A model generated the notes under the pieces. It was not told the DNA's origin. It ran no database searches and saw nothing but the letters and a program-made list of their open reading frames with translations. DNA of 32,000 bases from Clostridiales bacterium (GTDB lineage: Bacteria > Bacillota > Clostridia > Christensenellales > Aristaeellaceae), in the NCBI GenBank assembly GCA_004556155.1, contig SFIM01000013.1, positions 18,603 to 50,602 of the forward strand, read 5' to 3'. Of this stretch, positions 2 through 28,438 are shown piece after piece. Position 1 is the first letter of the stretch. Every line of letters begins with the position of its first letter. The position numbers and the translations under genes were made by a program.

Positions 2-1120
2 GTGCCTGCGGGCACATACATGGAAAACGTGGTGATCGCAGGCTTCTGGGGCGAGGCGCTGACGCTGGCCTTCGCGCCGGGCGTATACCTGCGCGGCACG
101 GTGGAAATCCGCCACTGCGGCGAGGTATCGCTGCAAGCCGCCAGCCTGGGCGACGCCTGCGTCTATCCCACCGGCGCGCAAACGCCCGTAACCGCGCGAG
201 CCGTGCAGCGGCTGAGGCTTAAAAGCCTGTATCTTTCGGGATATCGCGGACGTTCTACCGCGACCGACGGCAGCGAATACTGCGTGCAGGCGCAGGGCTG
301 CAACACGGTGATCGACGGCTGCGGCATGGAGTATTCCCGCAATGCCTGCCTGTACGCGGCGGGCGGCACGGCCAGCATGCATGCCTGCCTGGGCGGGTGC
401 ACGGGCGATAACCCCGCCACCAACGCCAACCTGGGCTATGCCGCCCGCGGCGCGGAGGGCGCGCACATCGCGCTGGAGGATACCTACCCCCTGGCCTTTA
501 TCGCCCATTACTGCGGCAGCGGCATGGCCACCTATCGGGTGGGCACGGGCTGCGTGGACACGGCGGGAGGCATGAGCGAACCGGGCAGCGCGCGGGTGAC
601 GCGCACCTTCCTGCCCAGCTTCCACTGCACCTACACGGGCAGCAGCCGCAAGGCTTATCCCAACAACAAGGTGATCTGGCAGGGCGTGTACGGCCAGTAC
701 CGCGCGGGCTACAATAATTTCAATACCGGCACGCTGTGGTTTGACGAGGCTTCGGCGGCGCTGGCGGGCAAGACCGTCCATCAGGCCACCCTGAGCCTGC
801 GCCGCTCCAACGGCGGCTCCTCCGCCGCGCGCAATGTGTATCTGGGCGCGGTGGCGCTGCGGCAGGCGGACTGGGCCACTACCTATCGCCCGGCCTTTAC
901 CGCGCCCTCGGCGCTGCCTGCTTATCCGGCGGGGCAGCTGAGCCGCGAGTGCGAGGGCGTGTACGATATAACCAGTCTGATGGCCGCCGTGCAGCAGGGC
1001 TATGGCATCGGCGTATACGAGCCCTGCGCGGCCTACAGCGGCAGCTATTCGCCGCACTACACCATGTTTTACGGCCTGGGCAGCGATTTTGTGCCCGTGC
1101 TGACCGTTACTTACAGCTGA
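2..1120 (+). CDS. 5'-truncated hypothetical structural protein (beta-helix / tail-fibre-like, prophage context)
   Basis: The open frame runs from the window edge to the stop at 1118-1120. The N-part is Gly/Ala/Cys-rich and repetitive, compatible with a parallel beta-helix. It lies directly upstream of a phage-type holin. No family was recognised by eye. Confidence 0.5.
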   Translation: MPAGTYMENVVIAGFWGEALTLAFAPGVYLRGTVEIRHCGEVSLQAASLGDACVYPTGAQTPVTARAVQRLRLKSLYLSGYRGRSTATDGSEYCVQAQGCNTVIDGCGMEYSRNACLYAAGGTASMHACLGGCTGDNPATNANLGYAARGAEGAHIALEDTYPLAFIAHYCGSGMATYRVGTGCVDTAGGMSEPGSARVTRTFLPSFHCTYTGSSRKAYPNNKVIWQGVYGQYRAGYNNFNTGTLWFDEASAALAGKTVHQATLSLRRSNGGSSAARNVYLGAVALRQADWATTYRPAFTAPSALPAYPAGQLSRECEGVYDITSLMAAVQQGYGIGVYEPCAAYSGSYSPHYTMFYGLGSDFVPVLTVTYS

Positions 1121-1178
1121 GCATAGGATAAAACAGGGCGCGTGCGCCCTGCTCAGGGTGAGAAAGGAGCTGTTCCAT

Positions 1179-1592
1179 ATGAATCATTTTTTCAAGGGCC
1201 TTGCCGGTGCGCTCAGCACGGTGGGGGCGTATCTTGTGTATCTGCTGGGCGGCTGGGACGCGGCGCTGACGGTGATGTTTGTGCTGATGGGGCTGGACTA
1301 TGCCACGGGGCTGCTGACGGCCTTTATGGGCAAAAGCCCCAAGACGCAGGGCGGCGGCTTTCGCTCCTCGGTGGCCTTTATTGGCATCAGCAAGAAGCTG
1401 ATGATGGTGGCCATCGTGATGCTGGCCGCGGCGCTGGATCGTCTGACGGGCGACAGCAATATCTGCCGCAGCGCGGCCATTGGCTTTTACGCGGCCAACG
1501 AGGGCTTATCCATCATGGAAAACGCCGCCGCGCTGGGCGTGCCGCTGCCCAAGGCGCTCAAGGACGTGATGGAGCGCCTGGACGAAAAATAA
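1179..1592 (+). CDS. phage_holin_4_1 / TcdE-type holin
   Basis: AAAGGAG (1163-1169) lies 9 nt before the ATG at 1179. The product MNHFFKGLAGALSTVGAYLVYLLGGWD...GLDYATGLL...ANEGLSIMENAA has the three-TM layout and motifs of the toxin-secretion/phage-lysis holin family. Confidence 0.85.
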   Translation: MNHFFKGLAGALSTVGAYLVYLLGGWDAALTVMFVLMGLDYATGLLTAFMGKSPKTQGGGFRSSVAFIGISKKLMMVAIVMLAAALDRLTGDSNICRSAAIGFYAANEGLSIMENAAALGVPLPKALKDVMERLDEK

Positions 1593-1614
1593 TTTTTAAG
1601 CGCGCCTGAGCCGC

Positions 1615-1660
1615 GCCGCCGCCGCGAGCTGCCGATCTTGCCGTTCGCGGCGGTTTTTTG
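1615..1660 (+). terminator. intrinsic terminator after the holin
   Basis: GC-rich stem GCCGCCGCGA...TCGCGGCGG followed by TTTTTT (1654-1659). Confidence 0.7.
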
Positions 1661-1760
1661 CCGGATAGCCTGCCGGTTCGCTTTCTTTTTTTACGCAATC
1701 CGCAGCGTAACGGGGAATTTGATGTGTTTTCGCATCAAATGATGATTTTTTGCACCGTTG

Positions 1761-1789
1761 TTGACAACTGAACGCAAAGCGGCTATACT
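1761..1789 (+). promoter_or_regulatory. sigma-A-type promoter
   Basis: TTGACA (1761-1766), 17-nt spacer, TATACT (1784-1789), about 50 nt upstream of the 1840 CDS. Confidence 0.55.
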
Positions 1790-1839
1790 AATTCTTGTCG
1801 CTAACGGGAACATATGTTTGCATTAAAGGAGGATGAAGC

Positions 1840-2118
1840 ATGAGCAAACGCACGATTATATACCGCAATGTGGCGGCGCGCATGGCGCTGCTGGGCATCA
1901 AGAAAACCGAGCTGGCCAAGCTGCTGGATATGAACTATTCCACCCTGCAGGGCAAGCTGCGCGGGCGCTCGTCCTTCTCGCTGGAGGAGGCCATCGAGAT
2001 CAAGGATATCCTGTGCTCGGGCGCGGCGCTGGAGGATTTCTTTGCCCGCACCGAGGCCGATTGCCCGCCCCTGCCCAATCAGGAGAGAATCTATGCCAGC
2101 AGCAAACCAACGGCCTGA
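1840..2118 (+). CDS. small helix-turn-helix DNA-binding protein (phage-type)
   Basis: AAAGGAGGA RBS at 1826-1834. The segment LLGIKKTELAKLLDMNYSTLQGKLRG is HTH-like. Confidence 0.6.
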   Translation: MSKRTIIYRNVAARMALLGIKKTELAKLLDMNYSTLQGKLRGRSSFSLEEAIEIKDILCSGAALEDFFARTEADCPPLPNQERIYASSKPTA

Positions 2119-2515
2119 AAACGAGCTGCGCGCCGAGGCGTATCTAAGCCGGGTAAGCGCGCTGCAAAGCGAGCTGACCTGCCAATTGCAGCACTTGCGG
2201 GCGCTGCGGGCGCATGGCCGCGCGGCCTCGGGCGCACAGGATGTGCTTACGCCCCTGCGCTTGCGGCAGGTGCAGCGGCGCGTGAAGCAATTGCGCGCAG
2301 ACCTTTCCCGCGCGCAGCGGGAGGTAGCCTGGGCTGTCGGCCGCCTGCCCAATCCCCGCGCGCGCACGCTGATGGAGATGCGCTACCTGTCCTGCCTGAC
2401 CTGGGATGAAATTGCCCAGGCGCTCTATGCTTCGCCCCGCGCGGCGCTGCGCATGCATCAGCGCGCGCTGCGGCAGGTGGATATCCTGCTGGCCGAGCGC
2501 GAGGATTGCCGCTGA
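2093..2515 (+). CDS. DUF1492 / sigma-70 region-4-like phage transcriptional regulator
   Basis: AGGAGAG (2081-2087) precedes the ATG at 2093. The N-part is coiled-coil. The C-terminal RARTLMEMRYLSCLTWDEIAQALYASPRAALRMHQRALRQV fits the DUF1492/sigma r4 pattern. The gene overlaps the previous CDS by 26 nt. Confidence 0.6.
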   Translation: MPAANQRPENELRAEAYLSRVSALQSELTCQLQHLRALRAHGRAASGAQDVLTPLRLRQVQRRVKQLRADLSRAQREVAWAVGRLPNPRARTLMEMRYLSCLTWDEIAQALYASPRAALRMHQRALRQVDILLAEREDCR

Positions 2516-2624
2516 AGGGCTGGACGCACTTTTTTGCCACAATCGGCGCGCGCGGCGACTTGACGGCGGAGCGGAAATAATAGTAAGATAAAGCGTTGAA
2601 CCAACCCAAAGGAGGATTTTCCCC

Positions 2625-3221
2625 TTGACCGAAGCCGAACTGCGCCCTATCGTGGCGCGCAACATCGCCGCCTGCCGCAAGCAAGCGGGCATGACGCAGG
2701 CCGAGCTGGCGGAAAAGCTGAACTATTCCGATAAAACGATTTCCAAGTGGGAGCGGGCGGAAGGCTTGCCCGATCTGGTGGTCAGCCAGAATATCGCGGA
2801 GCTGTTCGGCGTGCCGCTGGACGCGCTGCTGCGCGATGATACGCCCAAGCCCGTGGACGATGCGCGAAGCGCGCGCCAGCTCAACGCCCGCCGCAGGATG
2901 ATCCTGCTGATGTCGGTGAGCTTGTGCTGGCTGGTCGCCACCATCGCTTACTTTGCCCTCAAGCTCGCCGTGCCCACGCTGCCGCGCGTGTGGCTGGCCT
3001 TCATCTATGCCATGCCCGCCAGCTTTATCGTGTGCACGGTGTTCACCTGCATCTGGTGGAAAAAGCTCTGGCGGCTGCTGTCGATCAGCGGCATTATCTG
3101 GACGCTGGCCGTGGCTGTGCATATCAGCATCCGCCTGCCGGCCATCTACCTGATCTATGTGGTGGCTGCCGTGGTGCAGGCGCTGTTTTTGATGTTCTTC
3201 CATTTTTTGCGCATCAAGTGA
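2625..3221 (+). CDS. XRE-family HTH regulator with four C-terminal transmembrane helices
   Basis: TTG start after AAAGGAGGA (2609-2617). The HTH_3 signature is AGMTQAELAEKLNYSDKTISKWERAEGLPD. The C-terminal half is hydrophobic (LLMSVSLCWLVATIAYF..., IYLIYVVAAVVQALFLMFF). Confidence 0.75.
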   Translation: MTEAELRPIVARNIAACRKQAGMTQAELAEKLNYSDKTISKWERAEGLPDLVVSQNIAELFGVPLDALLRDDTPKPVDDARSARQLNARRRMILLMSVSLCWLVATIAYFALKLAVPTLPRVWLAFIYAMPASFIVCTVFTCIWWKKLWRLLSISGIIWTLAVAVHISIRLPAIYLIYVVAAVVQALFLMFFHFLRIK

Positions 3222-3231
3222 GGAGCCAGCC

Positions 3232-3909
3232 ATGACCAAAGCCGTGTATGAGATGCTGCTGGGCTATATGCAATCCTGCGTGGCCGACCGCGCGCACGAT
3301 GAAAACCATGTGCTGCGCGTGCTGTCCAACGCCCTGCAAATCGCCCGCGAGGAGCCGCAGGCTGACCTGGATATCCTGATGGCGGCCTGCCTGCTGCACG
3401 ATGTGGCCCGGCGCGAGGAGATGGAAACGCCCGGCGTGCGCCATGCGGAGGCTGGAGCTGGAAAGGCGCGCGCGTTCCTGCAGCGCCAGGGCTTTTCAGC
3501 CGAATTTTGCAGCCGTGTGGCGGATTGCATCGCCGCGCACAGCTTTGGCAGCGGCCCTGCGCCTGCGCGCATCGAGGAAAAAATCCTCTTTGACGCGGAC
3601 AAGCTGGACGCCGCCGGGGCGCTGGGTACGGCGCGGATGCTGCTGTATCACGGCGCGGCGGGCGATCCGATTTATGAGGTGCGCGCGGACGGGCAGGTAA
3701 GCGACGGCGTTGGGGATGCGCAGCGGAATTATTTTTATGAGTATCACGGCATGATTGCCCAAATGGCCGGCAGCATGCTCACCCCGGCAGGCCGCCGCAT
3801 GGCGCAGGCGCGCGCCCAGACCGCGCGGCAGCTGTATCAGGCCATCTATGATGAGGCGCAGGGCTGCCATCTGGCTTTGCGGCAGGCGCTTGACGGCGCG
3901 TTTTCCTGA
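3232..3909 (+). CDS. HD-domain metal-dependent phosphohydrolase
   Basis: GAGGAG RBS. The H...HD motif is present (ENHVLRVL...ACLLHDVARRE) together with a later DADKLD. The gene starts 10 nt after the previous stop, so it is probably operonic. Confidence 0.8.
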   Translation: MTKAVYEMLLGYMQSCVADRAHDENHVLRVLSNALQIAREEPQADLDILMAACLLHDVARREEMETPGVRHAEAGAGKARAFLQRQGFSAEFCSRVADCIAAHSFGSGPAPARIEEKILFDADKLDAAGALGTARMLLYHGAAGDPIYEVRADGQVSDGVGDAQRNYFYEYHGMIAQMAGSMLTPAGRRMAQARAQTARQLYQAIYDEAQGCHLALRQALDGAFS

Positions 3910-3948
3910 TGCGGAAAAATTATTTTCAAAAATATTTGCAAAAAACAC

Positions 3949-3977
3949 TTGCCTTTTTGCCCAAACCGCCATATAAT
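3949..3977 (+). promoter_or_regulatory. sigma-A-type promoter
   Basis: TTGCCT (3949-3954), 17-nt spacer, TATAAT (3972-3977). Confidence 0.55.
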
Positions 3978-3983
3978 GATTTC

Positions 3984-4224
3984 GGTTAAGGTTCGGGTCT
4001 GTGGTTGAAAACCGATGCCAGTCGCAGGCAAAGCGGTCCACGTAAGCCTGGAGAATTTCCGGGTGAGCATGGTGCGGTTTAGACGTAAGTCCGGCCGGAT
4101 GAAAATCCGAGAGAGCGGCGTGGGGGCCAAGATGCTATGAGCAATGCTCCTGCCGGCGAGTGTGGGGTCAAAGACCAGGTCAGCCTTCCTTAAACCGGAA
4201 AAATTATCAGGGGGTTTACCATCC
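3984..4224 (+). promoter_or_regulatory. long structured 5' leader (unclassified) of the zinc-ribbon gene
   Basis: About 240 nt separate the predicted TSS from the ATG at 4225, with no credible ORF. Local hairpins include CGGAU-GAAA-AUCCG (4096-4109), CCUGGA-GAAUU-UCCGGG (4047-4063), GGUC-AAA-GACC (4166-4176) and GAGC-AAU-GCUC (4140-4150). The ends GGUUAAGG (3984-3991) and CCUUAAACC (4187-4195) can pair. Confidence 0.35.
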
Positions 4225-4506
4225 ATGTACGAAGACAAGACGCTGGTATGCCGCGACTGTGGGCAGGAATTCGTGTTCACCGCTGGCGAACAGGAATTCT
4301 ACGCTGAAAAGGGCTTCCAGAACGAGCCCACCCGCTGCAAGGCTTGCCGTCAGGCTCGCAAGGCCAGCCGTCCGGCTCCTGGCGCTCCCCGCGAGACTTA
4401 CACCACCACGTGTGCGAATTGCGGCGCCGAGACCACTGTTCCCTTCATTCCCAAGAACGACCGCCCCATCTACTGCAGCGAGTGCTTCGCCGCGATGCGT
4501 CGGTAA
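4225..4506 (+). CDS. double zinc-ribbon protein (CxxC...CxxC plus CxxC-x17-CxxC)
   Basis: MYEDKTLVCRDCGQEFVFTAGEQEFYAEKGFQNEPTRCKACR carries the first Cys pair set. CANCGAETTVPFIPKNDRPIYCSEC is an exact CxxC-x17-CxxC. The ATG is at 4225. Confidence 0.85.
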   Translation: MYEDKTLVCRDCGQEFVFTAGEQEFYAEKGFQNEPTRCKACRQARKASRPAPGAPRETYTTTCANCGAETTVPFIPKNDRPIYCSECFAAMRR

Positions 4507-4571
4507 TCATACCGTCACAGCGAAGCCTGCGTCCCTCGCAAGAGATGGGCAGGCTATAAGATGAGTGCAAT

Positions 4572-4605
4572 GCGGAAGGCTGCGAAAGCAGTCTTCCGTT
4601 TTTCT
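4572..4605 (+). terminator. intrinsic terminator
   Basis: Stem GCGGAAGGCUGC / GCAGUCUUCCG with a GAAA loop, followed by UUUUUCU. Confidence 0.75.
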
Positions 4606-4680
4606 GTGGCTTCAAGCACCGTAGGGCATGGCATCATGCCGTTTTTTCGTGCGCGCGCTCCGGCTTTTGCGCTGAAATCA

Positions 4681-4709
4681 TTGACGGATAGCCCGCCATG
4701 TGCTATAAT
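4681..4709 (+). promoter_or_regulatory. sigma-A promoter with extended -10
   Basis: TTGACG (4681-4686), 17-nt spacer, TGC-TATAAT (4701-4709). Confidence 0.65.
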
Positions 4710-4747
4710 TTTTTAGTACTACGATACGAGTTTCTGGAGGGATTTGT

Positions 4748-5497
4748 ATGTCCGGTCATTCCAAATGGCATAATATTCAGGCGAAAAAGGGCAAGGCGGA
4801 CGCCGCGCGCGGCAAGATCTTTACCAAGATCGGCCGTGAAATCGCCATCGCTGTGCGCGAGGGCGGCGCGAACCCGGAAAGCAACGGCAAGCTGCGCGAT
4901 ATCATCGCCAAGGCCAAGGCCAATAACATGCCCAACGATAACATTCAGCGCTCCATCAAAAAGGCCGCGGGCGAAGGCAGCGGCATCAACTACGAAGAAA
5001 TCGTTTATGAAGGCTATGCCCCCGGCGGCGTGGCTGTCATTTGCAATATCGTAACCGATAACCGCAACCGCACCAGCGCGGATGTGCGCCACATCTTTGA
5101 TAAGTGCGGCGGCAACCTGGGCGCTCCCGGCTCGGTTAGCTACATGTTTGATAACAAGGGTCAGATCGTCGTTGAGCGCGAGCCCGGCATGGACGAGGAC
5201 GAAATGATGATGATCGCCCTGGATGCGGGCGCCGAGGATATGAAGGCGCTGGACGATGTGTTTGAAATCTACACCGCGCCCAACGATTTCTCCGCCGTGC
5301 GCGAGGCGCTGGAGCAGCAGGGTCTGTCCTTCCTGTCCGCGGACGTGAAGATGATCCCGCAGAACACCGTCTCCATCACCGATGAGGAAACCGCCGCCAA
5401 GATCGAAAAGCTGCTGGACATGCTGGATGATAATGACGACGTGGCCGACGTGTATCACAACGCCGAGCTGCCCGAATCCGACGAAGAGGACGAATAA
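4748..5497 (+). CDS. yebC: YebC/PmpR-family DNA-binding regulator
   Basis: [46 protein letters not shown]... is the canonical YebC N-terminus. GGAGGG RBS. Confidence 0.95.
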
Positions 5498-5566
5498 GCC
5501 CAGCGATGCGCTGAGCGCTTCATGGCTCGATGCGCTGAGCGCCATCATGGATATGCGATTGAACGG

Positions 5567-7057: not shown

Positions 7058-7082
7058 ACCGATTTTTACCTCCGATGAAATC

Positions 7083-7111
7083 AGTATGGCTTTTCGCGCC
7101 CGCCTTTATGC
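7083..7111 (-). promoter_or_regulatory. forespore-type (sigma-F/sigma-G) promoter of sigG
   Basis: The minus strand reads GCATA (7107-7111), 18-nt spacer, CATACTG (7082-7088). This is close to the GHATR-N18-CATxHTA consensus and lies ~25 nt upstream of the sigG ATG. Confidence 0.5.
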
Positions 7112-7130: not shown

Positions 7131-7799
7131 GGGGGAAGACGGGGACGAGGAGACGAAGGGAACGGGGAAAACGGGGGAAACGTTACTTTCTTCAGTGAAG
7201 AAAGTAACAAAGAACCGGTATTGTAGACGAAAAAGCTGTTGGAATAAAACTGGAAGGCGGCACCGCCGCCCCCGTGGCAGGGAAAAACTTGAATCGCTCG
7301 GTTCGGAGTAAACTCCAACCGGACGATTCTTCATTTTTCCCCTTCGGGCGTGCTGCGCACGCCCTGCGCTGATCTGCGATCAGCGTGCCGCGGGAGCGAT
7401 AGTTGGGTGCAGGAATCCTGTATGGCGGTTGGCAATAGATTTAATGGAACGGGCAACGGAAGGCTTCTCCTCAAGGAGAAGCCTTTTGGTGAGTGCACTC
7501 ACCAACTATCGTTACCCGCCACGTCTGATTTCTGCCCCAACCACGCCCCCGTGGCAGCGGACAGCGCAGCTGGACGCGAGGGCGTGCGTAGCACGACCAT
7601 GGGGGAAAGCAGGAAACGAACGGAGGAAAGCTTGCTTTCATCCGGGCGGTTCAGGCTTTCTCCTGCCACGGGGTGGCCAGGGCCACTCCCAGTTTTATTC
7701 AATCGACTTTCATGTCACAAACAGGTTCTTTGTTTCTTTCTTGACTCAAGAAAGAAACGTACCCCCTTCGTCCCCCTCGTCCCCCTCGTTCCTGCCCCC
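7131..7799. repeat. element A: 669-bp nested-palindromic modular intergenic element (unclassified family)
   Basis: Left arm from 7131 and right arm up to 7799 are inverted copies. Each carries an ACG-purine tract, a 27-bp palindrome (7182-7208, 7732-7758), AAAGAACC, a GAATAAAACTGG block, and a CCCCGTGGCA...GCCACGGGG stem enclosing hairpins. The centre is a 20-bp perfect palindrome at 7486-7505. The element is homologous to 17626-17868 and 21056-21898. Confidence 0.85.
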
Positions 7800-8504
7800 T
7801 TAGCTGCTCATCCGGGTCAGCTCCACGTTCAGGCGCGAAAGGATGCGCTTTTCCAGCCGGGAGATGTAGCTTTGCGATATCCCCAGCGCGTCGGCAACCT
7901 CCTTTTGCGTCATCTCCCGCGCGCCGCCCAGACCAAAGCGAAGCTGCATGATCTGCTGCTCGCGCAGGGGCAAGCGCGCCAGCGCCGCGCGCAATAGCTG
8001 CTTTTCCACCTTGTCGTCCATGCGGCGGTAAACCAGATCGCTCTCCGTGCCCAGGATATCGCTTAGCAGCAGCTCGTTGCCATCCCAATCCTTGCGCAGC
8101 GGCTCATCCAGGGAGATTTCATAGCGAATCCGCGCCGTGTGGCGCAGATGCATCAGCATTTCGTTTTCGATGCAGCGCGAGGCGTAGGTGGCCAGCTTGT
8201 TCTTCTTTTCGGGGTCAAAGGTGTTGACTGCCTTGATCAGCCCGATCGTGCCGATGGAGATGAGATCCTCCAGCCCCACGCCCGAGCTTTCAAACTTGCG
8301 GGCAATGAACACCACCAGCCGCAGATTGCGCTCAATCAGGATGGAGCGCACCGTGCCGTCATCCGTGGGCAGCTTTTGCAAAAGCTCCGCTTCTTCCTCG
8401 CGCGTAAGCGGCTGGGGAAGCGGGTCCGCCCCGCCGATGTAATCCAGCGAACCCGCGCAGAGCCGCGCCCAGATTGCGTATAGCTGCCGTCGCATATCAA
8501 TCAT
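7800..8504 (-). CDS. sigE: sporulation sigma factor SigE (pro-sigma-E)
   Basis: The pro-sequence is followed by the [12 protein letters not shown] signature of SigE/SigK. It also has [13 protein letters not shown] and [13 protein letters not shown]. It lies immediately downstream of spoIIGA. Confidence 0.93.
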
Positions 8505-11454: not shown

Positions 11455-11528
11455 AGGGGCATGGTGTAATGGTAACACGTGGGTCTCCAAAACCTTTGTT
11501 GTGAGTTCGAGTCTTACTGCCCCTGCCA
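11455..11528 (+). tRNA. trnW: tRNA-Trp (anticodon CCA), CCA end encoded
   Basis: Hand-folded cloverleaf. Acceptor stem AGGGGCA/TGCCCCT, D stem GTGT/ACAC, anticodon loop CTCCAAA, T arm GTGAG-TTCGAGT-CTTAC, discriminator G followed by CCA. Confidence 0.92.
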
Positions 11529-11570
11529 AGAGAGCCTTTTCTGAAAAGAGAAGGCTCTCTTTCTATTTTG
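11529..11570 (+). terminator. intrinsic terminator after tRNA-Trp
   Basis: AGAGAGCCUU ... AAGGCUCUCU followed by UUCUAUUUU. Confidence 0.8.
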
Positions 11571-11685
11571 GATTGTTCACGCCGGCGCAGGCAAATATTG
11601 CGCCCCTGCAAGGGCGGCGCATGCACGCTATGCCTTGCAGGAGCGCAGTGAGGGCAATTATGCTTAAAGCGTTACGGAAGACGCA

Positions 11686-12078
11686 TCAGGCTTCTTTGGA
11701 GACGTCCGCGTCGATATAGAGGATATCGTGGCGGTTATACTCAATGGTAAATTGAAGATGGCTGCCCTCGCTGAAGCCGTCGGGATAGCAGAAAGCGCCG
11801 GGGAAATCGCTGATGAGGCGCTTATCCTCAAAGGTTTGCAGCTCGTCGCTGCTTAGCCAGATGCTCAGCGGGTTGCGTCCCTTGAAGCCTTGAACGGCGC
11901 AGGGCGTATGGATCAGCGCGCAACCAGTGGCTTTTTTGCTTATTGATTTGTTCTTTATCCCTTCGCCCTTCGCATATCCTCCCGGACGGATTGCAGCTGG
12001 CGCAGGATATCCAGGATGCGCGCGTCGGTGCGCTCCACCTGCTCCTTGGCCTCGCTGATCTGGCTCAGGGCTGTCCAA
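11686..12078 (-). CDS. hypothetical; C-terminal ~85 aa look coding but lack their own start codon (possible frameshifted continuation of the upstream gene)
   Basis: Between 11954 and 11689 the frame has no ATG, GTG or TTG. The only in-frame start (12078) overlaps the upstream CDS by 124 nt, and that overlap translates to Arg/Gly/Pro/Ala-rich low-complexity sequence. Confidence 0.3.
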   Translation of the reverse strand: MDSPEPDQRGQGAGGAHRRAHPGYPAPAAIRPGGYAKGEGIKNKSISKKATGCALIHTPCAVQGFKGRNPLSIWLSSDELQTFEDKRLISDFPGAFCYPDGFSEGSHLQFTIEYNRHDILYIDADVSKEA

Positions 12079-12410
12079 TCGCTGAAAAGGTTATCCCACA
12101 CGATGTCGGTTACGCGCCAGAAGGCGGATAGCTCGGTGGTTGCGTCGCAGCGCACGCGCACATCGCGCAGCTCGCGGTTAAAGCGATCCAGCGCGCGGCG
12201 AAGCTGCGCGATTTCCTGCTCGGCTTTATCCATGCGGCTGTGCTTGATCAGCCCCGACAGCAGGCCGCCGCCCAGCAGATCATACACGCCCCAGCCCTTG
12301 GCACTGCGCAGGGTGGATAGCGCCTGCTGCGCCTGCACGTGGGCTGCCTGACCCGCCTGGATGGCCTGGTCGGTTTCGTATATCAAGGATTGGAGATTGC
12401 TTTGTTCCAT
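11955..12410 (-). CDS. hypothetical coiled-coil protein
   Basis: GAAGGAG RBS. Heptad-like helical sequence flanks a Gly-rich hydrophobic patch (GWGVYDLLGGGLLSGLIK). No family was recognised. Confidence 0.7.
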   Translation of the reverse strand: MEQSNLQSLIYETDQAIQAGQAAHVQAQQALSTLRSAKGWGVYDLLGGGLLSGLIKHSRMDKAEQEIAQLRRALDRFNRELRDVRVRCDATTELSAFWRVTDIVWDNLFSDWTALSQISEAKEQVERTDARILDILRQLQSVREDMRRAKG

Positions 12411-12452
12411 ATTAGCTCCTTCTGGGCGGCGGTTCCTGCACCGTCCAAAGGC

Positions 12453-12481
12453 AGTATAGCAAGCATGCCCTGCCCGCGCAA
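12453..12481 (-). promoter_or_regulatory. sigma-A promoter with extended -10
   Basis: The minus strand reads TTGCGC (12476-12481), 17-nt spacer, TGC-TATACT (12453-12461). Confidence 0.5.
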
Positions 12482-12525
12482 GCCAAAATGGATGAAAGAT
12501 ACGTTTTGCCGTCCGAAAGCAGCCG

Positions 12526-13923
12526 TCAGGCGTATGCCTTCAGCGTGAAGGAAGCGCGCACCAGAGCTCGCCCCTCGGCCAGGGTGTGGATTTCCCCCGC
12601 GTGCAGCAGCTGGGACAGGAGGTTGCCAATCGCCGTGGCTTCGGCCGGGCCCGCGGTCAGCGGACGCGCAAGCGCGCGGGCAGTCAGGCGGTTCAGATAA
12701 TCGTTGCGGCAGCCGCCGCCCACCACGCGCAGACAGGCGATGCGGCGGCCGGTCAGCGCTTCCAGCTCGTCCACCGCCGCGCGGTAGCAATCCGCCAGGC
12801 TATGGCACACGCACGCGGTCAGGTCGCCCACATCCGCAGGCGCGGGATAGCCGCCCTCGGCCAGGGCGCTGCGCAGCTCCGCCGCCATGGAGACGGGGGC
12901 CAGAAAGCGCACGGCGTTGCAGTCCACCCGGCCTGGATAGCCGTCGTGCCGCTCGGCCAGCGCTGCCAGCTCGGCAAAGGAGGTCTGCGGGCACAGCTCG
13001 CGCCGCAGCTCCTGCAGCATCCAAAGGCCCATGATGTTTTTGAGATAGCGAATCGTGCCCTGCGCGCCGCCCTCGTTGGTCAGGTTGCGCGCACGGCTTT
13101 CCGGGGTCAGGATGGGCGCGGGCAGCTCCATGCCCAGCAGGCTCCATGTGCCGCTGGAAAGATATGCGTCGTTTGCCTCCAGCGGCGCGGCCATCACGGC
13201 GGCGGCGGTATCGTGCGTGGGAGCCAGGAGAATTTGGGTATCAAAGCCCACGGCCTGGGCAATTTCAGGCAGCAGCGCGCCTACCCGCGTGCCGGGCTGC
13301 GACAGGGGGCCGAACAGCCGCCGCGGAAAGCCGCAGCGGTCGATCAGCTCCCAGTCCCAAGCGCGCGCGCGCGCGTCCAGCAGCCCCGTGGTGGAGGCGT
13401 TGGTATACTCATGCACGCGCTGGCCGGTGAGCAGATAGTTCAGATATTCGGGCAGCAGCAGCATTTCCTGCGCGGCATCCAGCTCTCCTGCTTCGCGCAG
13501 GGCGGTCAGCTGATAGATGGTATTAAACGGCTGCTTTTGGATACCTGTGCGGGCATACAGCGCTTCCTCATCGATGACGCGGCGGACGATTTCATCCATG
13601 CCCTGCGTGCGGCCGTCGCGATAGCTTACCGCGTCGCCCAGCATGCGTCCCTGCGCGTCCAGCAGCACAAAGTCCACGCCCCAGGTGTCGATGGCTACGC
13701 TGCGCGGGGTGATTCCCTGCGCCCTCGCTGTGCGCAGGCCGTTCAGGATTTCGGCAAACAGCCGGTCGATATCCCAGCATAAGCGCCCGTTTTTTCGCTG
13801 CGCGCCGTTGGAAAAGCGATAAAGCTCGGTCAGCTCCAGCCGGCCGTTTTTTACCTGTCCCAGCATGTGCCGGCCGCTGGACGCGCCGATATCGATGGCG
13901 ATCATGGCGTTGTTCATAGGCAT
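12526..13923 (-). CDS. rhaB: rhamnulokinase (FGGY family)
   Basis: AIDIGASSGRHMLG N-terminal ATPase motif, with overall RhaB-like sequence. It is the last gene of the rhamnose block. Confidence 0.9.
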   Translation of the reverse strand: MPMNNAMIAIDIGASSGRHMLGQVKNGRLELTELYRFSNGAQRKNGRLCWDIDRLFAEILNGLRTARAQGITPRSVAIDTWGVDFVLLDAQGRMLGDAVSYRDGRTQGMDEIVRRVIDEEALYARTGIQKQPFNTIYQLTALREAGELDAAQEMLLLPEYLNYLLTGQRVHEYTNASTTGLLDARARAWDWELIDRCGFPRRLFGPLSQPGTRVGALLPEIAQAVGFDTQILLAPTHDTAAAVMAAPLEANDAYLSSGTWSLLGMELPAPILTPESRARNLTNEGGAQGTIRYLKNIMGLWMLQELRRELCPQTSFAELAALAERHDGYPGRVDCNAVRFLAPVSMAAELRSALAEGGYPAPADVGDLTACVCHSLADCYRAAVDELEALTGRRIACLRVVGGGCRNDYLNRLTARALARPLTAGPAEATAIGNLLSQLLHAGEIHTLAEGRALVRASFTLKAYA

Positions 13924-13926
13924 TCC

Positions 13927-16719
13927 TCAGCCAAAGGCGCGGGCGTTGAGGGCCTGCTCCAGGCGCTTTAGCTTCCAGGGAGCCAGGGGCGAGAAGGGGA
14001 AGGAGCGCAGCTGGCGCAATGACATCTTTTGGATATCCTTGACGGCCTTCAATTCGGTCAGCTCGGGTGCGATGGTCAATATCTCCTCGCGCAGATCATC
14101 GTGCTTGAGCAGCTGCTCAAAGGGCACGTCCAGCAGCAGCCTTCCCGAATAGGGCGCGGCGCACACGCAATGGAAGGCATAGCTGCCGCTTTCCAGCACA
14201 GCGTGCAGGCAGCCGTCGGCCTGCTCCTGCCAGTCCGCGTCGCTGCCCGTCACCGTGCCCAGGGGCAGCACGGCCTCGGCCTGCGCGCCAAAGGGCACCT
14301 CGAGCTCCCAATCGAAGGTCGTTTCATCCACCGTTTTCCAGTGGGTGCGGTACCGTCCCATGGCGGATTCATAGCTGAAATCGATTTCACCCAGGCGCGT
14401 ATCGGGATGCGGATGCATCAGCGCCTTGCGGAAGCCCGGCGCATCCTCCATGGGAGCCAGCCCCGCCGCGTCGCGGCACACCCACTCCATCACCGCGCCG
14501 TAGGCGTAATGGTTGAGCGAGTTCATGCCGGTGCTGGACATATGGCCGTCAGGCATCACGGAGTTCCAGCGCTCCCACACGGTGGTAGCGCCCATGTTCA
14601 CCTCATACAGCCAGCCGGGGTAGCTTTCATTCAGAAACAGCGTGTAGGCCAGGTGGTTAAAGCCCGCCTGCGTGAGCACGCTGCACAGATAGGCCGTGCC
14701 CACAAAGCCCGTGCGCAGCTCGTTCCGGGCGTTTTCAAACAGGCGATCCAGCGCGGCCTTGAGGATGGGCGTGTCGGACTCGGGCATCAGCCCCAGGAAC
14801 AGCGACAGGATGTGCGCCGTCTGGGTGTTGACGGTCAGCCCGCCCTTAGGGGCGCGGTAGGTTTGGCGGATGGCGGCAAGAATCTCCTGCTCCAGGGCGG
14901 CGTAGCGTGCAGCGTCGGGCGCGTAGCCCAGGATGGCGGCGGCCTTGCGCGTCAGGCGCGTGGAGTACAGATAGAAGGCCGAGGCGATGAAATCGGGATC
15001 GGTGCCGCCCGTGCAGGAGGCTGGGAAGGCCGCATCCAGCGCCAGCCAGTCGGCAAAGTGGAAGCCCGCCTGCCACAGGCGATGGTCGCCCGTCTCGTGA
15101 TCGACGCGATGAATCCACTCCACCCACAGCTTCATATTGTCGTATTGCTCGCGCAGCAGGGCGGTATCGCCGAAGAACTGATATACCGTCCAGGGGATGA
15201 TGCTGCCCGCGTCCGCCCAGGCGCAGGCAGGGGAGCCCTGCATGCCAAAGGAGGGCACCACGTGCGGCACGCCGCCGCCGCGCTCGCGCTGCTCAAAGGC
15301 CATATCGCGCATGAACTTGGCGTAGAAGGCCGCGCTGCTCATCTGGTAGCAGGCGGTGGCGCAGAACACCTGCGCGTCGCCCGTCCAGCCCATGCGCTCG
15401 TCGCGCTGGGGGCAATCGGTGGGCACATCCACAAAGTTGCCGCGCTGCCCCCACAGGGCGTTTTCGCACAGGCGGTTCACCTTGTCGCTGGCGGTGCGGA
15501 TGAAGGCCGTCTGCTCCATATCGGAATAGAGCACGCAGCCCACAAAGTCATGCAGGTCGATTTCCTCCCCAAAGCCCTCCAGCTGGATATACCGGAAGCC
15601 GAAGAAGGTGAAGTGCGGCCGCGCCCAGGCCTCCTGCCCATCGCAGATGTAGGTAAAGGTCTGCCTGGCGGTGCGCAGGTTATCGGTATAGAAGCAGCCG
15701 TCCTGCAGGATTTCGCCATAGCGCAGGGTGTAGGTATGGCCGCGCTCGGCGGCTGCGCGGAAGGTGACAAAGCCCGTGATTTCCTGCCCCATATCCAGCA
15801 CGGTTTCGCCTGCGGGCGTATGCAGCACGGCGGCGGGGCGCAACGTCAGCATGGCGCGCACAGGCGGGCTCATGCGCGGGCGCAGCAGGCCTGTATCCAT
15901 ATCGGGCAGCAGGCGCGCGGGCAGAGCGGCGGACAGGGGCTTGGAGGCGTCCCAGGTTTCGCCGTCATAAATATTGGAAAACAGCACGGGCGATTCGCCG
16001 CAGCGCCAGGTATCGTCCGAGGGAATGATGATCTCCGCGCCGTTATCCAGCGCCGCGTGCAATTCGCAGATCAGCGCCTGCGTATTGCCGAAGATTTCCT
16101 TCTGCCCCTGGAAGCCAAAGCGCCCCTTGTACCAGCCGTCGCCCAGCAGCACGGCGATTTCATTGTCCTCCGCCAGCAGGTCGGTCACATCGTAGGTTTG
16201 ATATTGCAGCCAGCTGTCGTATTTGTTGCAGCCGGGGGCCAGGTATTCGTCGCCTGCCTTCTGGCCGTTGATAAAGGCCTCGTACAGACCCAGGCCGCAG
16301 ATATACAGCCGCGCGGAGAGCACCCGCCCGGGCAGGGCAAAGCGCTTGACCAGCCGCGCGTTGGCAATCTCCCTGGGCGCGGCGATCCACTGCCCCAGCC
16401 AGGGCTCCTGCTGCTTGGCGGTTTCAAACCACGCGCGCGGGCTGAGCGCCGTTTCGCCGGTATCGGCGGTTACGGCGACGTCCCAGGTATAGCGCGTACG
16501 CGGGGACAGCGGAATATCGGGCGCAAAGCACAGGCTGTCGATATCCTGCCGCGTGCCCGAATCGTAAACCACGCTTTCATCCGGGCCGTACACCCGCACA
16601 CGGGCGGACTGCTGGCGCTTGCCGCCCTCGCAGGCGACCTTATAGGAAAAGCGCAGGGGGGTCAGATCAAAGCCCAGCGGGCGCGCGATGTGATTGACCT
16701 GCATGCCGTATACTCGCAT
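13927..16719 (-). CDS. alpha-L-rhamnosidase (GH78)
   Basis: 930-aa protein with the typical GH78 N-terminal beta-sandwich and six-hairpin catalytic-region sequence (e.g. DVPTDCPQRDERMGWTGDAQVF). Rhamnose-gene context. Confidence 0.9.
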   Translation of the reverse strand: MRVYGMQVNHIARPLGFDLTPLRFSYKVACEGGKRQQSARVRVYGPDESVVYDSGTRQDIDSLCFAPDIPLSPRTRYTWDVAVTADTGETALSPRAWFETAKQQEPWLGQWIAAPREIANARLVKRFALPGRVLSARLYICGLGLYEAFINGQKAGDEYLAPGCNKYDSWLQYQTYDVTDLLAEDNEIAVLLGDGWYKGRFGFQGQKEIFGNTQALICELHAALDNGAEIIIPSDDTWRCGESPVLFSNIYDGETWDASKPLSAALPARLLPDMDTGLLRPRMSPPVRAMLTLRPAAVLHTPAGETVLDMGQEITGFVTFRAAAERGHTYTLRYGEILQDGCFYTDNLRTARQTFTYICDGQEAWARPHFTFFGFRYIQLEGFGEEIDLHDFVGCVLYSDMEQTAFIRTASDKVNRLCENALWGQRGNFVDVPTDCPQRDERMGWTGDAQVFCATACYQMSSAAFYAKFMRDMAFEQRERGGGVPHVVPSFGMQGSPACAWADAGSIIPWTVYQFFGDTALLREQYDNMKLWVEWIHRVDHETGDHRLWQAGFHFADWLALDAAFPASCTGGTDPDFIASAFYLYSTRLTRKAAAILGYAPDAARYAALEQEILAAIRQTYRAPKGGLTVNTQTAHILSLFLGLMPESDTPILKAALDRLFENARNELRTGFVGTAYLCSVLTQAGFNHLAYTLFLNESYPGWLYEVNMGATTVWERWNSVMPDGHMSSTGMNSLNHYAYGAVMEWVCRDAAGLAPMEDAPGFRKALMHPHPDTRLGEIDFSYESAMGRYRTHWKTVDETTFDWELEVPFGAQAEAVLPLGTVTGSDADWQEQADGCLHAVLESGSYAFHCVCAAPYSGRLLLDVPFEQLLKHDDLREEILTIAPELTELKAVKDIQKMSLRQLRSFPFSPLAPWKLKRLEQALNARAFG

Positions 16720-17625: not shown

Positions 17626-17868
17626 GGCGGGGATGGGAGGACGGCAACTCATTCGTCTCGCGTTTGGGAGAAGGCTTTTATGGTTGTGCGGTTTTCATGC
17701 TGGTTGCCGTTCTATTCAACAATCGCAAATAGATACGAACAACCAATGCATCCAAGCATGCCCCCGTGGCACGCCGATGCAATCGACTTTCACGTCACAC
17801 ATAGGTTCTTTGTTACTTTCTTCACTGAAGAAAGTAACGTATCCCTCGTCCCCCGTCTCCTATCCTTC
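17626..17868. repeat. element C: 243-bp internally deleted member of the same repeat family
   Basis: The right part (17775-17868) matches the terminal module of A and B: the GTGTGACGTGAAAGTCGATTG block, AAAGAACC, the 27-bp palindrome 17811-17837, and the C-rich/ACG-purine tract. GCCCCCGTGGCAC (17759-17771) matches the core stem. The left end keeps the G-rich tract GGGGATGGGAGGACGG. Confidence 0.7.
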
Positions 17869-17870
17869 AT

Positions 17871-17904
17871 CAGAAAATGGGGACGCCGCCAGGTGCCGCG
17901 CCCC
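17871..17904 (-). terminator. terminator-like hairpin just after rhaD
   Basis: The minus strand reads GGGGGCGC...GCGUCCCC followed by AUUUUCU, 9 nt after the rhaD stop. Confidence 0.5.
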
Positions 17905-21040: not shown

Positions 21041-21055
21041 GCGTGGGCTCCTTTC

Positions 21056-21898
21056 GGGGAGGGGATGGGGAACGAGTGGGGAGGACGAAAGGGAACGTTC
21101 CTTTCTTCAGTGAAGAAAGGAACAAAGAACCGATGTGTGACGTGAAAGCCGATTGAATAAAACTGAAAGGCAGGACTGCTACCCCGCCCCCATGGTCGTG
21201 CTGCGCACGACCTGCGCTGATCTGCGATCAGCGTGCCACGGGGGCGTGGTTGGGTGCGGGAAGTCTTGCGCAGCGATTGACGTCTGTTGGAAAAACGCGC
21301 TCACCAAAAGGCTTCTCCTTGAGGAGAGGCTCCGCCGCAGGCGGTGGTGAGGTGTAGGCTGCGAAGCAGCCGTTATCAAAACAATATAAGGACTACGCCG
21401 CTGCGGCGGCTACGACCCTCACAATTCGGCATAATCGTTTTGCAACGCTGACGCTTGCAAAACTCGTTGCCTCATTGGCGCTGCATCTGGCACAGAGGCG
21501 GATTACGCGCCTCATCAGTCAGGACAAGCCTGACAGCTTCCCCTCCAAGGGGAAGCCTTTTGGTGGCCGCGCTCTCTATATGTAAAAAACTGCGTTTCCC
21601 TTCATCCGCTTCGCTATGCTCAGCACCAGTCGCCCAACCGCCGTCTGCGGGGCAGCAGACAGCGCAGCTGGATGCCAGGGCTGGCGAAGCCAGACCAAGG
21701 GGGAAAGCGAAGGGATGACTGGGCGGAGCTTGCTCCAGACCAGGCAGCGCAAGCTTTTCCCTGCCCCGCAGAAACCTGCGTCCCCTTCCAGTTTTATTTC
21801 AGCAGCTTTCACGTCACACGCAGCTTTCTTTGGTACTTTCTTGGGCTCCAAGAAAGTACCGTCCTCTTCGTCCTTTTCGTCTCCTCGTCTCCCCGTCC
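21056..21898. repeat. element B: 843-bp full-length member of the repeat family
   Basis: The termini are inverted: a G-rich tract from 21056 and a C-rich tract to 21898. The palindromes are at 21097-21123 and 21832-21860. The 44-nt core block 21199-21242 differs at only 2 positions from 7351-7394. Each arm carries a CACCAAAAGGCTTC-hairpin module (21301-21331 and 21537-21567). The central ~200 bp is a string of tri-loop hairpins. Confidence 0.85.
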
Positions 21899-22366
21899 TT
21901 ACCCCGGATACTCCGTCCGCGCGTGCTCGGTCAGCTCGCGCAGATAGCGGGCGATGTAGAACTTGGCCATGTCCAGGTTCTGCTCCTGATAGTTGCCGCA
22001 TTCCTCGGGGCGCGCGCCGGGGATATCGCCCGAAAAGCCCAGGATGAAACGGCACATGTCGATCACCAGCGGCAGCGCTTCCTGCGCGCTGACCTCGCCG
22101 AAAAGAATCAGATAAAAGCCCGTGCGGCAGCCCATGGGGCCAAAATAAACAATCCGATCCCTTTGCGCGCCCGAGCGCAGAAAGGTTGCCCCCAGGTGCT
22201 CGATGGTGTGAATGGCCGGGGTATCCATCACCGGCTCGCGGTTGGGCGCGGTCAGGCGCAGATCAAAGGTGGTTACGCGCCCATCCCCCTGCCCGTCGCG
22301 GCGCGATACGTATACGCCGGGCAGCAGGCGGGTGTGATCAATGGTGAAGCTGGCGATCTTTTCCAT
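21899..22366 (-). CDS. luxS: S-ribosylhomocysteine lyase
   Basis: The HTIEHL metal motif and GCRTGFY are present. GGAGGA RBS inside the end of the upstream gene. Confidence 0.95.
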   Translation of the reverse strand: MEKIASFTIDHTRLLPGVYVSRRDGQGDGRVTTFDLRLTAPNREPVMDTPAIHTIEHLGATFLRSGAQRDRIVYFGPMGCRTGFYLILFGEVSAQEALPLVIDMCRFILGFSGDIPGARPEECGNYQEQNLDMAKFYIARYLRELTEHARTEYPG

Positions 22367-28298: not shown

Positions 28299-28317
28299 AT
28301 CTGCCGACAATTGAATA

Positions 28318-28418
28318 CCTTATCAAGAGTGGCGGAGGGAACGGCCCGATGATGCCCGGCAACCGGCGCAAGGCGTGCGGTGCTAATTCCGGCGGCGCGA
28401 TTGCGCCGGCAGATAAGG
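28318..28418 (+). promoter_or_regulatory. SAM-I (S-box) riboswitch aptamer
   Basis: CCTTATCAAGAGTGGCGGAGGGAACGGCCCGATGATGCCCGGCAACC...GGTGCTAATTCC...AGATAAGG matches the S-box consensus. The P1 helix is CCTTATC/GATAAGG. It lies upstream of metK. Confidence 0.92.
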
Positions 28419-28438
28419 CGTAAAGGAAACACCATCTC

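Follow-up and report, generated by a model that had tools for sequence, protein, structure and literature searches.

Introduction

Repetitive extragenic palindromes (REPs), bacterial interspersed mosaic elements (BIMEs) and REPINs are short, high-copy palindromes located mostly at the 3' ends of genes (PMC8266576, PMC3116915, PMC1525189), and REP palindromes are known as single-stranded DNA (ssDNA) substrates of TnpA_REP and as insertion targets of five insertion sequence (IS) families (PMC8266576, PMC1525189). Much work has been done in Proteobacteria on such repeated palindromes and on the domesticated transposases that go with them, and next to none in the uncultured Clostridia which predominate in the human gut; Group 1 of the REP-associated tyrosine transposases (RAYTs) has been reported in Clostridia (PMC5581495). 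Here we consider five palindromes of 27-29 bp in a stretch of 32,000 nucleotides from a Clostridiales bacterium (contig SFIM01000013.1, positions 18,603 to 50,602; hereafter the window), which an earlier reading of the letters alone, the original prediction, had described as an RNA or ssDNA hairpin kept perfectly symmetric in all five copies by compensatory changes. The five palindromes are the most conserved parts of the terminal inverted repeats of foldback elements, not free-standing motifs. We favour, with moderate confidence, the reading that each, much like a REP or BIME palindrome, forms a hairpin or cruciform in the DNA that is recognised by its shape as well as its sequence, is processed close to its loop and serves as a site of recombination or transposition, and that these palindromes are the terminal units of a lineage-specific family of non-autonomous foldback repeats.

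REPs (palindromic units) and BIMEs of enterobacteria, E. coli among them, and of pseudomonads are, together with REPINs, the closest known systems. Like them, the family consists of short, high-copy extragenic palindromes mostly at gene 3' ends, with stems kept by compensated changes and with fixed nucleotides beside the hairpin. At 27-29 nt they fall within the 20-50 nt of REP stem-loops and, like group 3 REPs, they are perfect around a centre of 3-4 nt; two palindrome classes alternate within an element as do Y and Z units. They also stand in inverted doublets that fold strongly, recalling the larger hairpins of REP doublets, but the two ends of a doublet carry different variants. Mosaic, length-variable arrangements, long vertical persistence at fixed loci and the use of palindromes as insertion targets complete the likeness. 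We do not file the family as a member of the REP/RAYT group, however, because the GTAG tetranucleotide is absent and because size, long arms, AT-richness, purine tracts and host all differ. The palindromes are AT-rich instead of GC-rich; the doublets measure 155-955 bp with ~190 nt of homology beyond the palindrome, compared to ~70-110 bp for a REPIN doublet; purine/pyrimidine minisatellites flank them, terminators are built in, and the host is a Firmicute. A RAYT gene, which in REPIN-RAYT systems is a single copy with the repeats on either side, was not found in the loci examined.

Bacterial miniature inverted-repeat transposable elements (MITEs) such as Correia/NEMIS, ERIC and bcr1 are likewise non-coding, shorter than 1 kb, intergenic and multi-copy, fold back through terminal inverted repeats and can carry terminators. 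MITEs derive from DDE-type ISs; for the present family no parent IS, target-site duplication or empty site was found in the loci examined. It differs from MITEs in that the termini are self-complementary with a symmetry better kept than the match between the two ends, and the internal length varies continuously, with no defined size. The attC sites and the end hairpins of IS200/IS605 elements offer a third comparison, since in part of these sites structure is conserved over sequence and a protein reads the hairpin of one strand (PMC8266576). Those hairpins, however, are imperfect, with functional bulges or extrahelical bases, whereas the ones described here are perfect; IS200/IS605-type elements and PATEs have unlike subterminal hairpins on a single strand, along with a TnpA Y1 gene, and lack terminal inverted repeats, which are long here, and no integrase or TnpA gene lies near the palindromes.

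Results

Symmetry of the palindrome arms

We name the palindromes after the foldback elements that carry them. A-left (7182-7208; variant T1, GTTACTTTCTTC-AGT-GAAGAAAGTAAC, C-closed class) and A-right (7732-7758; variant T2, reading inward GTTTCTTTCTTG-AGT-CAAGAAAGAAAC, G-closed class) are of the form 12-3-12, as is B-left (21097-21123; variant T3, GTTCCTTTCTTC-AGT-GAAGAAAGGAAC); B-right (21832-21860; variant T4, inward GGTACTTTCTTGG-AGC-CCAAGAAAGTACC) has 13-bp arms, 13-3-13, and palindrome C (17812-17838), again variant T1, ends a one-armed, truncated element. Read inward, the sequences are exactly those first written down, and so are the positions of four copies; copy C lies 1 nt to the right of the 17811-17837 given before. 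As originally claimed, every difference among the five is mirrored in the opposite arm: T to G at position 2, A to C or to T at position 4, C to G at position 12, and one inserted G:C pair. A perfect 12-3-12 palindrome did not arise in 200 shuffles, and the core CTTTCTT-N5-7-AAGAAAG occurs five times in the window against an expectation of 0. As ssDNA, the 27-29-nt palindromes fold into hairpins of 12-13 bp with dG of -10 to -12.8 kcal/mol and z of -4.9 to -7.4 (for A-left a 12-bp hairpin, dG -10.0, z -5.6).

The symmetry extends beyond the window. Related loci were retrieved by a half-site which did not fix the outer arm or positions 2-4; at these three positions the two arms matched in 93 of 97 loci, compared to 27.4 +/- 4.1 after shuffling (maximum 45 in 10,000). 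Retrieval by a profile that constrained neither arm gave 94 independent loci, 87 of them perfect, three with one mismatch and four with two, so that the perfection claimed for the five window copies holds for these and is strong, not absolute, in the larger sample. Non-Watson-Crick pairs make up 11 of 1,156 stem pairs (0.95%), four of the 11 being T.G. Among 24 distinct sequences, with all imperfect variants included, 96.5% of cells pair, versus 86.4% when shuffled and 45-57% when the register is slid. Double-sided change is found at three of the 12 pairs, with four pair types at position 2 (U-A, G-C, C-G and A-U), three at position 4 and two at position 12, and the covariation score of 0.236 (shuffled, 0.072 +/- 0.016) was reached in none of 500 shuffles.

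This constraint is local. Within an element, the left and right stems differ at 23% of positions, compared to the 0.95% between the arms of one palindrome, and they are unlike in 23 of 24 non-redundant complete elements. Nine variants recur at two or more loci, and every one of them is symmetric, whereas asymmetric variants are limited to single loci. Variant T3 has its sole occurrence at the B-left locus, where strain L056 carries a half-changed intermediate, GTTAC...GGAAC; palindrome C is unchanged in eight of nine strains and has a one-sided change (GTAGC) in the ninth. Uncompensated changes, which the original prediction had held to speak against it if they appeared in a larger set of copies, thus do occur (L056, L059, L089, L090, L117, L123, L153, L155 and L156), although they are rare, confined to single loci and partly recombinant chimeras. 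The covariation is genuine and reaches beyond the window, but the copies are not independent: because they share descent as termini of one repeat family, the independent events are few, with ~6 double changes and ~8 one-sided variants.

Sequence conservation and the proposed hairpin

Homology among the five window ends continues outward into G/A-rich tracts and inward for ~160 nt, and the ends align over ~190 nt. The terminal inverted repeats are 60-190 nt long, and the elements that they bound are non-coding, intergenic and 155-955 bp in length. Conservation amounts to 1.68 bits per position in the palindrome, 1.40 in the first 30 nt inside it, 0.84 further inside and 0.35 in the outer purine tract; the peak is made up of ACG, the palindrome and those first 30 nt.

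Within the palindrome, six stem pairs are invariant, and the CTTTCTT/AAGAAAG core as well as the flanking ACG and AAAGAA are fixed. Positions 1, 3 and 5-11 show no compensated change and are fixed save for rare one-sided variants. The loop, read inward, is AGT, AGG, GGT, AGC or CGT, and is inverted in none of the 94 intact loci. These invariant pairs, fixed flanks and oriented loop suggest that sequence-specific recognition by a protein is likely also at work. The earlier statement that this is not a fixed protein-recognition sequence is not supported, since six pairs never vary and ACG, AAAGAA and the orientation of the loop are fixed. The earlier choice of an RNA or ssDNA hairpin survives in part: a hairpin is plausible, and RNA becomes less likely, as wobble pairs are nearly absent (4 of 1,156 are T.G) and both DNA strands are perfectly paired, which favours DNA. 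The palindromes have 30-48% GC in a genome of 61% GC and would be expected to melt easily.

The palindrome centre as a joining point

The spacer between luxS and the AraC gene measures 358-957 nt in ten strain contigs chosen by luxS identity alone, and varies because modules are gained and lost. In strains L057 and L065 the B-right palindrome is split at its centre by a module of 100 nt. All 27 copies of this module lie inside a palindrome, in ~20 contexts and five outer-arm backgrounds (e.g. L057:4514-4620, L033, L035, L053, L083, L125 and L180); the window has none. The module is GC-rich, TAGCGCCGCCGCAGGCGG...GCGCGGGGCGTACA, with three internal hairpins, one with a GTAA tetraloop. Its junctions are constant, with the outer arm and the recipient's own loop followed by CA|TAGCGCC...GGCGTA|CA(A/G)GG-AAAG, and the palindrome halves around it still pair. 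It looks like a tiny non-autonomous element specialised for the palindrome centre. At its right junction 4-5 nt of the recipient arm have been replaced, pointing to conversion or recombination rather than to clean transposition. A second mobile sequence at a fixed position within a repeated palindrome, there a REP, is also what IS1397 and ISKpn1 (IS3 family), IS621 and ISPpu9/10 (IS110 family) present, but here the insert is 100 nt long and carries no gene.

The central point is also where the K core of element B is attached, and this core has its first 18 nt in common with the 100-nt module. As a side observation, this hairpin-rich core (window 21330-21600) is present in ten of ten strains whatever else changes and ends in a plus-strand terminator-like hairpin at 21536-21556; it has no Rfam match and might encode a small RNA that is antisense with respect to luxS-AraC.

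Breakpoints in the palindrome are also seen between strains. One-sided variants at truly orthologous loci often prove to be recombinants: L089 and L090, whose arms differ, are chimeras reciprocal to each other, and L128 and L153 show contiguous conversion tracts that end inside the palindrome. Two solo palindromes (L161:1993 and L076:4924), with purine and pyrimidine tracts directly flanking them, have halves from different variants; such chimeras would be the expected product of recombination between the two terminal palindromes of one element. At L046:1588-1650 a perfect 63-bp palindrome with 30-bp arms has the same 19-nt centre, CTTTCTTCAGTGAAGAAAG, and different outer arms, and is flanked directly by ...ACG and CGT... 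without element arms. Apparent swaps of whole palindromes between strains were also considered; most proved to be clustering errors that had merged different loci.

C-closed and G-closed ends are combined in 21 of 24 elements, compared to 47% expected (p ~5e-5, uncorrected for descent). This excess of unlike end classes fits sites whose centre sets their recombination partners. The pdif (XerC/XerD-site) modules of Acinetobacter plasmids are bounded by inverse, near-palindromic sites of ~28 bp, with hybrid sites and exchange of modules. Inverse sites, hybrid sites, module exchange and unlike ends are shared with pdif and other heterospecific recombinase sites. The core site of a tyrosine recombinase has two binding arms of ~11 bp around a centre of 6-8 bp; the sites described here, taken with 11-nt arms, would have a centre of 5 or 7 nt (11-5-11 or 11-7-11). 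In contrast to pdif, their arms are identical and not specific for XerC and XerD, no linked recombinase was found in the loci examined, and they are chromosomal, intergenic and without cargo.

Foldback elements and their genomic setting

From the outside inward, an element consists of a purine-rich minisatellite, ACG, the AT-rich 27-29-bp palindrome, ~30 conserved nt, an outward-facing intrinsic terminator and a variable core, followed by the mirror image of these parts. The outer tracts, seen in related loci at L161:8872 and L104 for example, are irregular tandem arrays of 9-10-nt units (GGGGGACGA and similar) whose copy number varies between strains; they often begin 0-3 nt past a stop codon. 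A gene ends just outside ~70% of element ends, and the median distance from stop codon to ACG (~30 nt) equals the median tract length. Just inside the A-left palindrome lies the conserved subterminal motif delimited by alignment, AAAGAACC...GTGAC/GTAGAC..AAAAG...TTGGAATAAAACTGG (7209-7252, plus strand), which is mirrored at every other end.

Each arm carries, 45-60 nt inward of the palindrome and separate from it, a canonical GC hairpin with a T-run. Terminator-like hairpins of this kind, followed by CAGTTTTATT and facing outward, lie in the left arm of A (7253-7273, minus strand, GC hairpin), in its right arm (7670-7689, plus strand, GC hairpin) and in the left arm of B (21166-21191, minus strand). 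The GC hairpin of the arms fits the definition of an intrinsic terminator, and the AT-rich palindrome does not. With one outward-facing hairpin in each arm, a transcript arriving from either side would meet an intrinsic terminator in the far arm, and the whole element, judged by this arrangement, would end transcription entering from both sides.

Foldback element A (7131-7799; inverted repeats I3, I11 and I19) extends from a purine tract (7131-7179) through AC, palindrome, arms, palindrome and GT to a pyrimidine tract (7761-7799), matches the end profile at 7135-7316 (plus) and 7628-7808 (minus), folds as a whole with dG of -216 kcal/mol (z -16.6), and is found in eight of eight strain contigs. 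It lies between the sigE stop codon (7800-7802) and the promoter region of sigG. We observe that between element A and the sigG start codon, at 7081-7111 on the minus strand, stands GCATA-18 nt-CATACTG, which resembles the forespore sigma-F/sigma-G promoter consensus and which we regard as a candidate sigG promoter; element A is positioned exactly between the sigE stop codon and this candidate. Element B (21048-21902; inverted repeats I1 and I7, and the end profile) fills the luxS-AraC spacer and comprises a purine tract (~21056-21094), T3, an arm, the K core (~21330-21600), an arm, T4 and a pyrimidine tract (21863-21898). The partial element C (17719-17873, minus strand; I2, I4 and I15, and the end profile) consists of one arm, the palindrome and a pyrimidine tract (17841-17873), with a class II aldolase gene on one side and an MBL-fold gene on the other.

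The window is ordinary chromosome of a Firmicute with 61% GC, and contains a raiA RNA motif, a SAM-I riboswitch, RNase Y, spoIIGA-sigE-sigG, rhamnose genes and luxS. The raiA motif (3987-4192, plus strand, 173.7 bits) and the riboswitch (28317-28419, plus strand, 84.4 bits) are both full length. Adjoining RNase Y and a tRNA gene, four strain contigs (L001, L006, L007 and L008, at 250-5500) have an island whose genes encode an integrase, a resolvase, a helicase-like protein and SHOCT-domain proteins; the window (11500-14000) and L002-L005 differ there, the window having rhamnose-utilisation genes, and the island is an integrated element that some strains have and others lack. All eight contigs have prophage genes for tail and holin on the far side of the HD and HTH genes.

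Distribution of the family

These are undescribed small non-coding repeat elements of an uncultured human-gut Clostridia/Oscillospiraceae lineage. The end profile, applied to ~1.1 Mb of related contigs, detected 219 ends at no fewer than 94 loci, all in spacers between called genes or open reading frames (ORFs); one of 192 palindrome cores lay beyond the profile. Convergent ends form 51 pairs, which enclose a continuous range of lengths from 155 to 955 bp without coding capacity. The largest interval, of 2,465 bp in L125, was considered as a candidate autonomous copy and set aside, being bounded by a weak partial match and having internal ORFs with no Pfam match.

A scan of one genome per species, anchored solely on the subterminal motif and hence blind to the palindrome, placed the family in the Hadza-gut Clostridia metagenome-assembled genome (MAG) CAKUFG01, whose flanks are ~95% identical to the window, and in one Oscillospiraceae MAG; its remaining matches were due to chance. 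A metagenome scan anchored on the inner half-site gave mostly human-gut contigs among the matches listed. No paper in the searchable literature contains the exact family sequences. Rfam 15, searched with the window at the gathering threshold and with both elements at the E-value level, returned for the family only chance-level matches (E 0.1-0.7), and plasmids and phages gave no BLASTN match in distant mode. Among viral contigs, a scan of IMG/VR found one genuine member, L185, and ~13 AT-rich look-alikes that we judge to be natural hairpins drawn by the palindromic query and not relatives; they have no Rfam match.

Two IMG/VR contigs, AT-rich and from an unrelated organism, hold three copies (L184:11949-11977, L190:7039-7067 and L190:7714-7744) of a hairpin NNN-CTTTCTT-loop-AAGAAAG-N'N'N' followed by CAAAGAACCCGGG... 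and a strong terminator, ~100 nt in total. This unit, also without an Rfam match, may be a phage-encoded small RNA.

Discussion

The conserved core and fixed flanks, the symmetric changes, the oriented loop, the scarcity of wobble pairs, the AT-richness and the central breakpoints together favour a DNA hairpin or cruciform, handled in the way that TnpA_REP treats REPs (PMC8266576). Let us assume that in single-stranded DNA the palindrome folds out into a hairpin or, where the DNA is supercoiled, into a cruciform. Its shape and its fixed bases (the CTTTCTT/AAGAAAG core, ACG and AAAGAA on either side, and the loop with its set orientation and central G) might then be recognised by a DNA-processing enzyme acting in trans, which we postulate. 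The DNA would be broken and joined at or beside the loop, and such breakage and joining would both spread the elements and shuffle their modules. If only copies with fully paired arms stayed competent, the variants that multiplied would all be symmetric, as we propose, and symmetry would perhaps be a requirement for propagation.

A number of points weigh against this proposal and are best taken together. The formation of a hairpin or cruciform in vivo is something that we infer, perfect symmetry can arise by template switching without any function, and the number of independent double-change events is small (~6). GTAG, the tetranucleotide that usually stands directly 5' of a REP palindrome, is absent; ACG on the outer and AAAGAA on the inner side are the fixed flanks. 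No partner enzyme came to light: there is no Y1/RAYT-like match in the related loci examined, searched with approximate, reconstructed query sequences; an all-against-all ORF comparison in ~1.1 Mb of loci yielded no paralogous transposase family; and Pfam assigned only housekeeping functions to 19 genes in the three element-densest loci. Nor did flank-to-flank BLAST of all loci and the ten luxS contigs reveal empty sites or insertion polymorphism, only length variants. No target-site duplication was seen, the flanks being inverted complements (purine and pyrimidine tracts) and not direct repeats. Elements keep the same positions across ~95% flank identity, and any present-day mobility is hypothetical.

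The main rival reading, possible if on balance unlikely, is that the symmetry is mutational in origin. Template switching or short-tract gene conversion would copy one arm onto the other with no selection for a hairpin, and the palindrome would be nothing more than the inward portion of a terminal inverted repeat that an ordinary transposase may bind in duplex form. Template switching creates and maintains perfect stems in a single event (PMC8794818) and homogenises the arms of inverted repeats (PMC8604942); arms of 12-13 bp around a 3-nt loop make an ideal substrate for it. The one-sided intermediates at orthologous loci (L056 and L059) are expected if the second change is copied later, conversion tracts ending in the palindrome are seen directly in L128 and L153, and the failure to find an enzyme in the loci examined agrees with this explanation. 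It leaves unexplained, however, why nine of the 12 stem positions show no compensated change and, save for rare one-sided variants, stay constant, why ACG, AAAGAA and the loop do not change although the sequence around them does, why the 100-nt module targets the centre in 27 of 27 cases, and why unlike end classes are in excess. Template switching sometimes inverts loops (PMC8794818), but 0 of the 94 intact loci have an inverted one. The two explanations are compatible, as template switching or conversion may be the proximate restorer of symmetry even where the hairpin is functional.

An RNA hairpin, acting as a stabiliser in the 3' untranslated region, as a processing site for RNase III or RNase Y, or as a translational element, with the covariation reflecting selection on RNA pairing, appears improbable to us. 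Genes on both sides of an element point the same way, so that transcription must often run through it, ~70% of ends come directly past a stop codon, and the purine tract may resemble Shine-Dalgarno-like stabiliser sequences. REPs, too, affect mRNA stability (PMC8266576). Against an RNA role, G.U pairs, which are neutral in RNA stems, are nearly absent, end class and gene orientation are unrelated (Fisher p = 0.79), and a palindrome past the far-arm terminator, which would often go untranscribed, is equally perfect. No Rfam family matches, and the insertions, chimeras and solo palindromes are evidence at the level of DNA.

We consider it very improbable that the palindrome is an operator at which a dimeric regulator binds two inverted CTTTCTT half-sites as duplex DNA: the invariant inverted core CTTTCTT-N5-7-AAGAAAG does resemble a two-fold symmetric binding site, but an operator gives no reason for complementarity at the non-contacted positions 2, 4 and 12, the spacing of the cores varies (5 or 7 nt), and the sites are always ends of repeat elements beside genes as unrelated as sigE/sigG, the rhamnose genes and luxS. 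That the palindrome is itself an intrinsic transcription terminator is hardly credible, as the original prediction had also held, for although B-left, read outward, runs into a T/C-rich stretch and was flagged by a simple terminator scan, the other four window copies were not, the stem is AT-rich (30-48% GC, with only 2-4 G:C among 12-13 pairs), AAAGAA follows it inward and a mainly C-rich tract outward, and the GC hairpin with its T-run further inside each arm is the better candidate.

Returning to the DNA hairpin or cruciform that we prefer, one may go further and imagine a Firmicute counterpart of REP/RAYT with different rules, an extension that we offer tentatively and regard as rather doubtful. 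An AT-rich hairpin would be cut at its loop by a structure-specific enzyme, with ACG and AAAGAA playing a guide-like part; this would bring about cassette exchange between unlike sites, C-closed and G-closed; the 100-nt module would be a hyperparasite living only at the centre; and irregular, telomere-like purine repeats that begin right after stop codons would be left beside the hairpin. Within this extension, the elements might also have been taken over by the host to serve as terminator cassettes that work in both directions.

Irrespective of the details of the mechanism, the family is a clean natural experiment on palindrome symmetry, with dozens of loci, symmetric variants and half-changed or chimeric intermediates, and population data from many metagenomes are available for this question. 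Should there be a dedicated enzyme, a new structure-specific DNA tool would be gained. For the bacteria that carry them, the elements reshape intergenic regions between strains, which is relevant to strain typing and to breaks in MAG assembly. They may also bear on operon insulation, since an outward-facing terminator lies in each arm.

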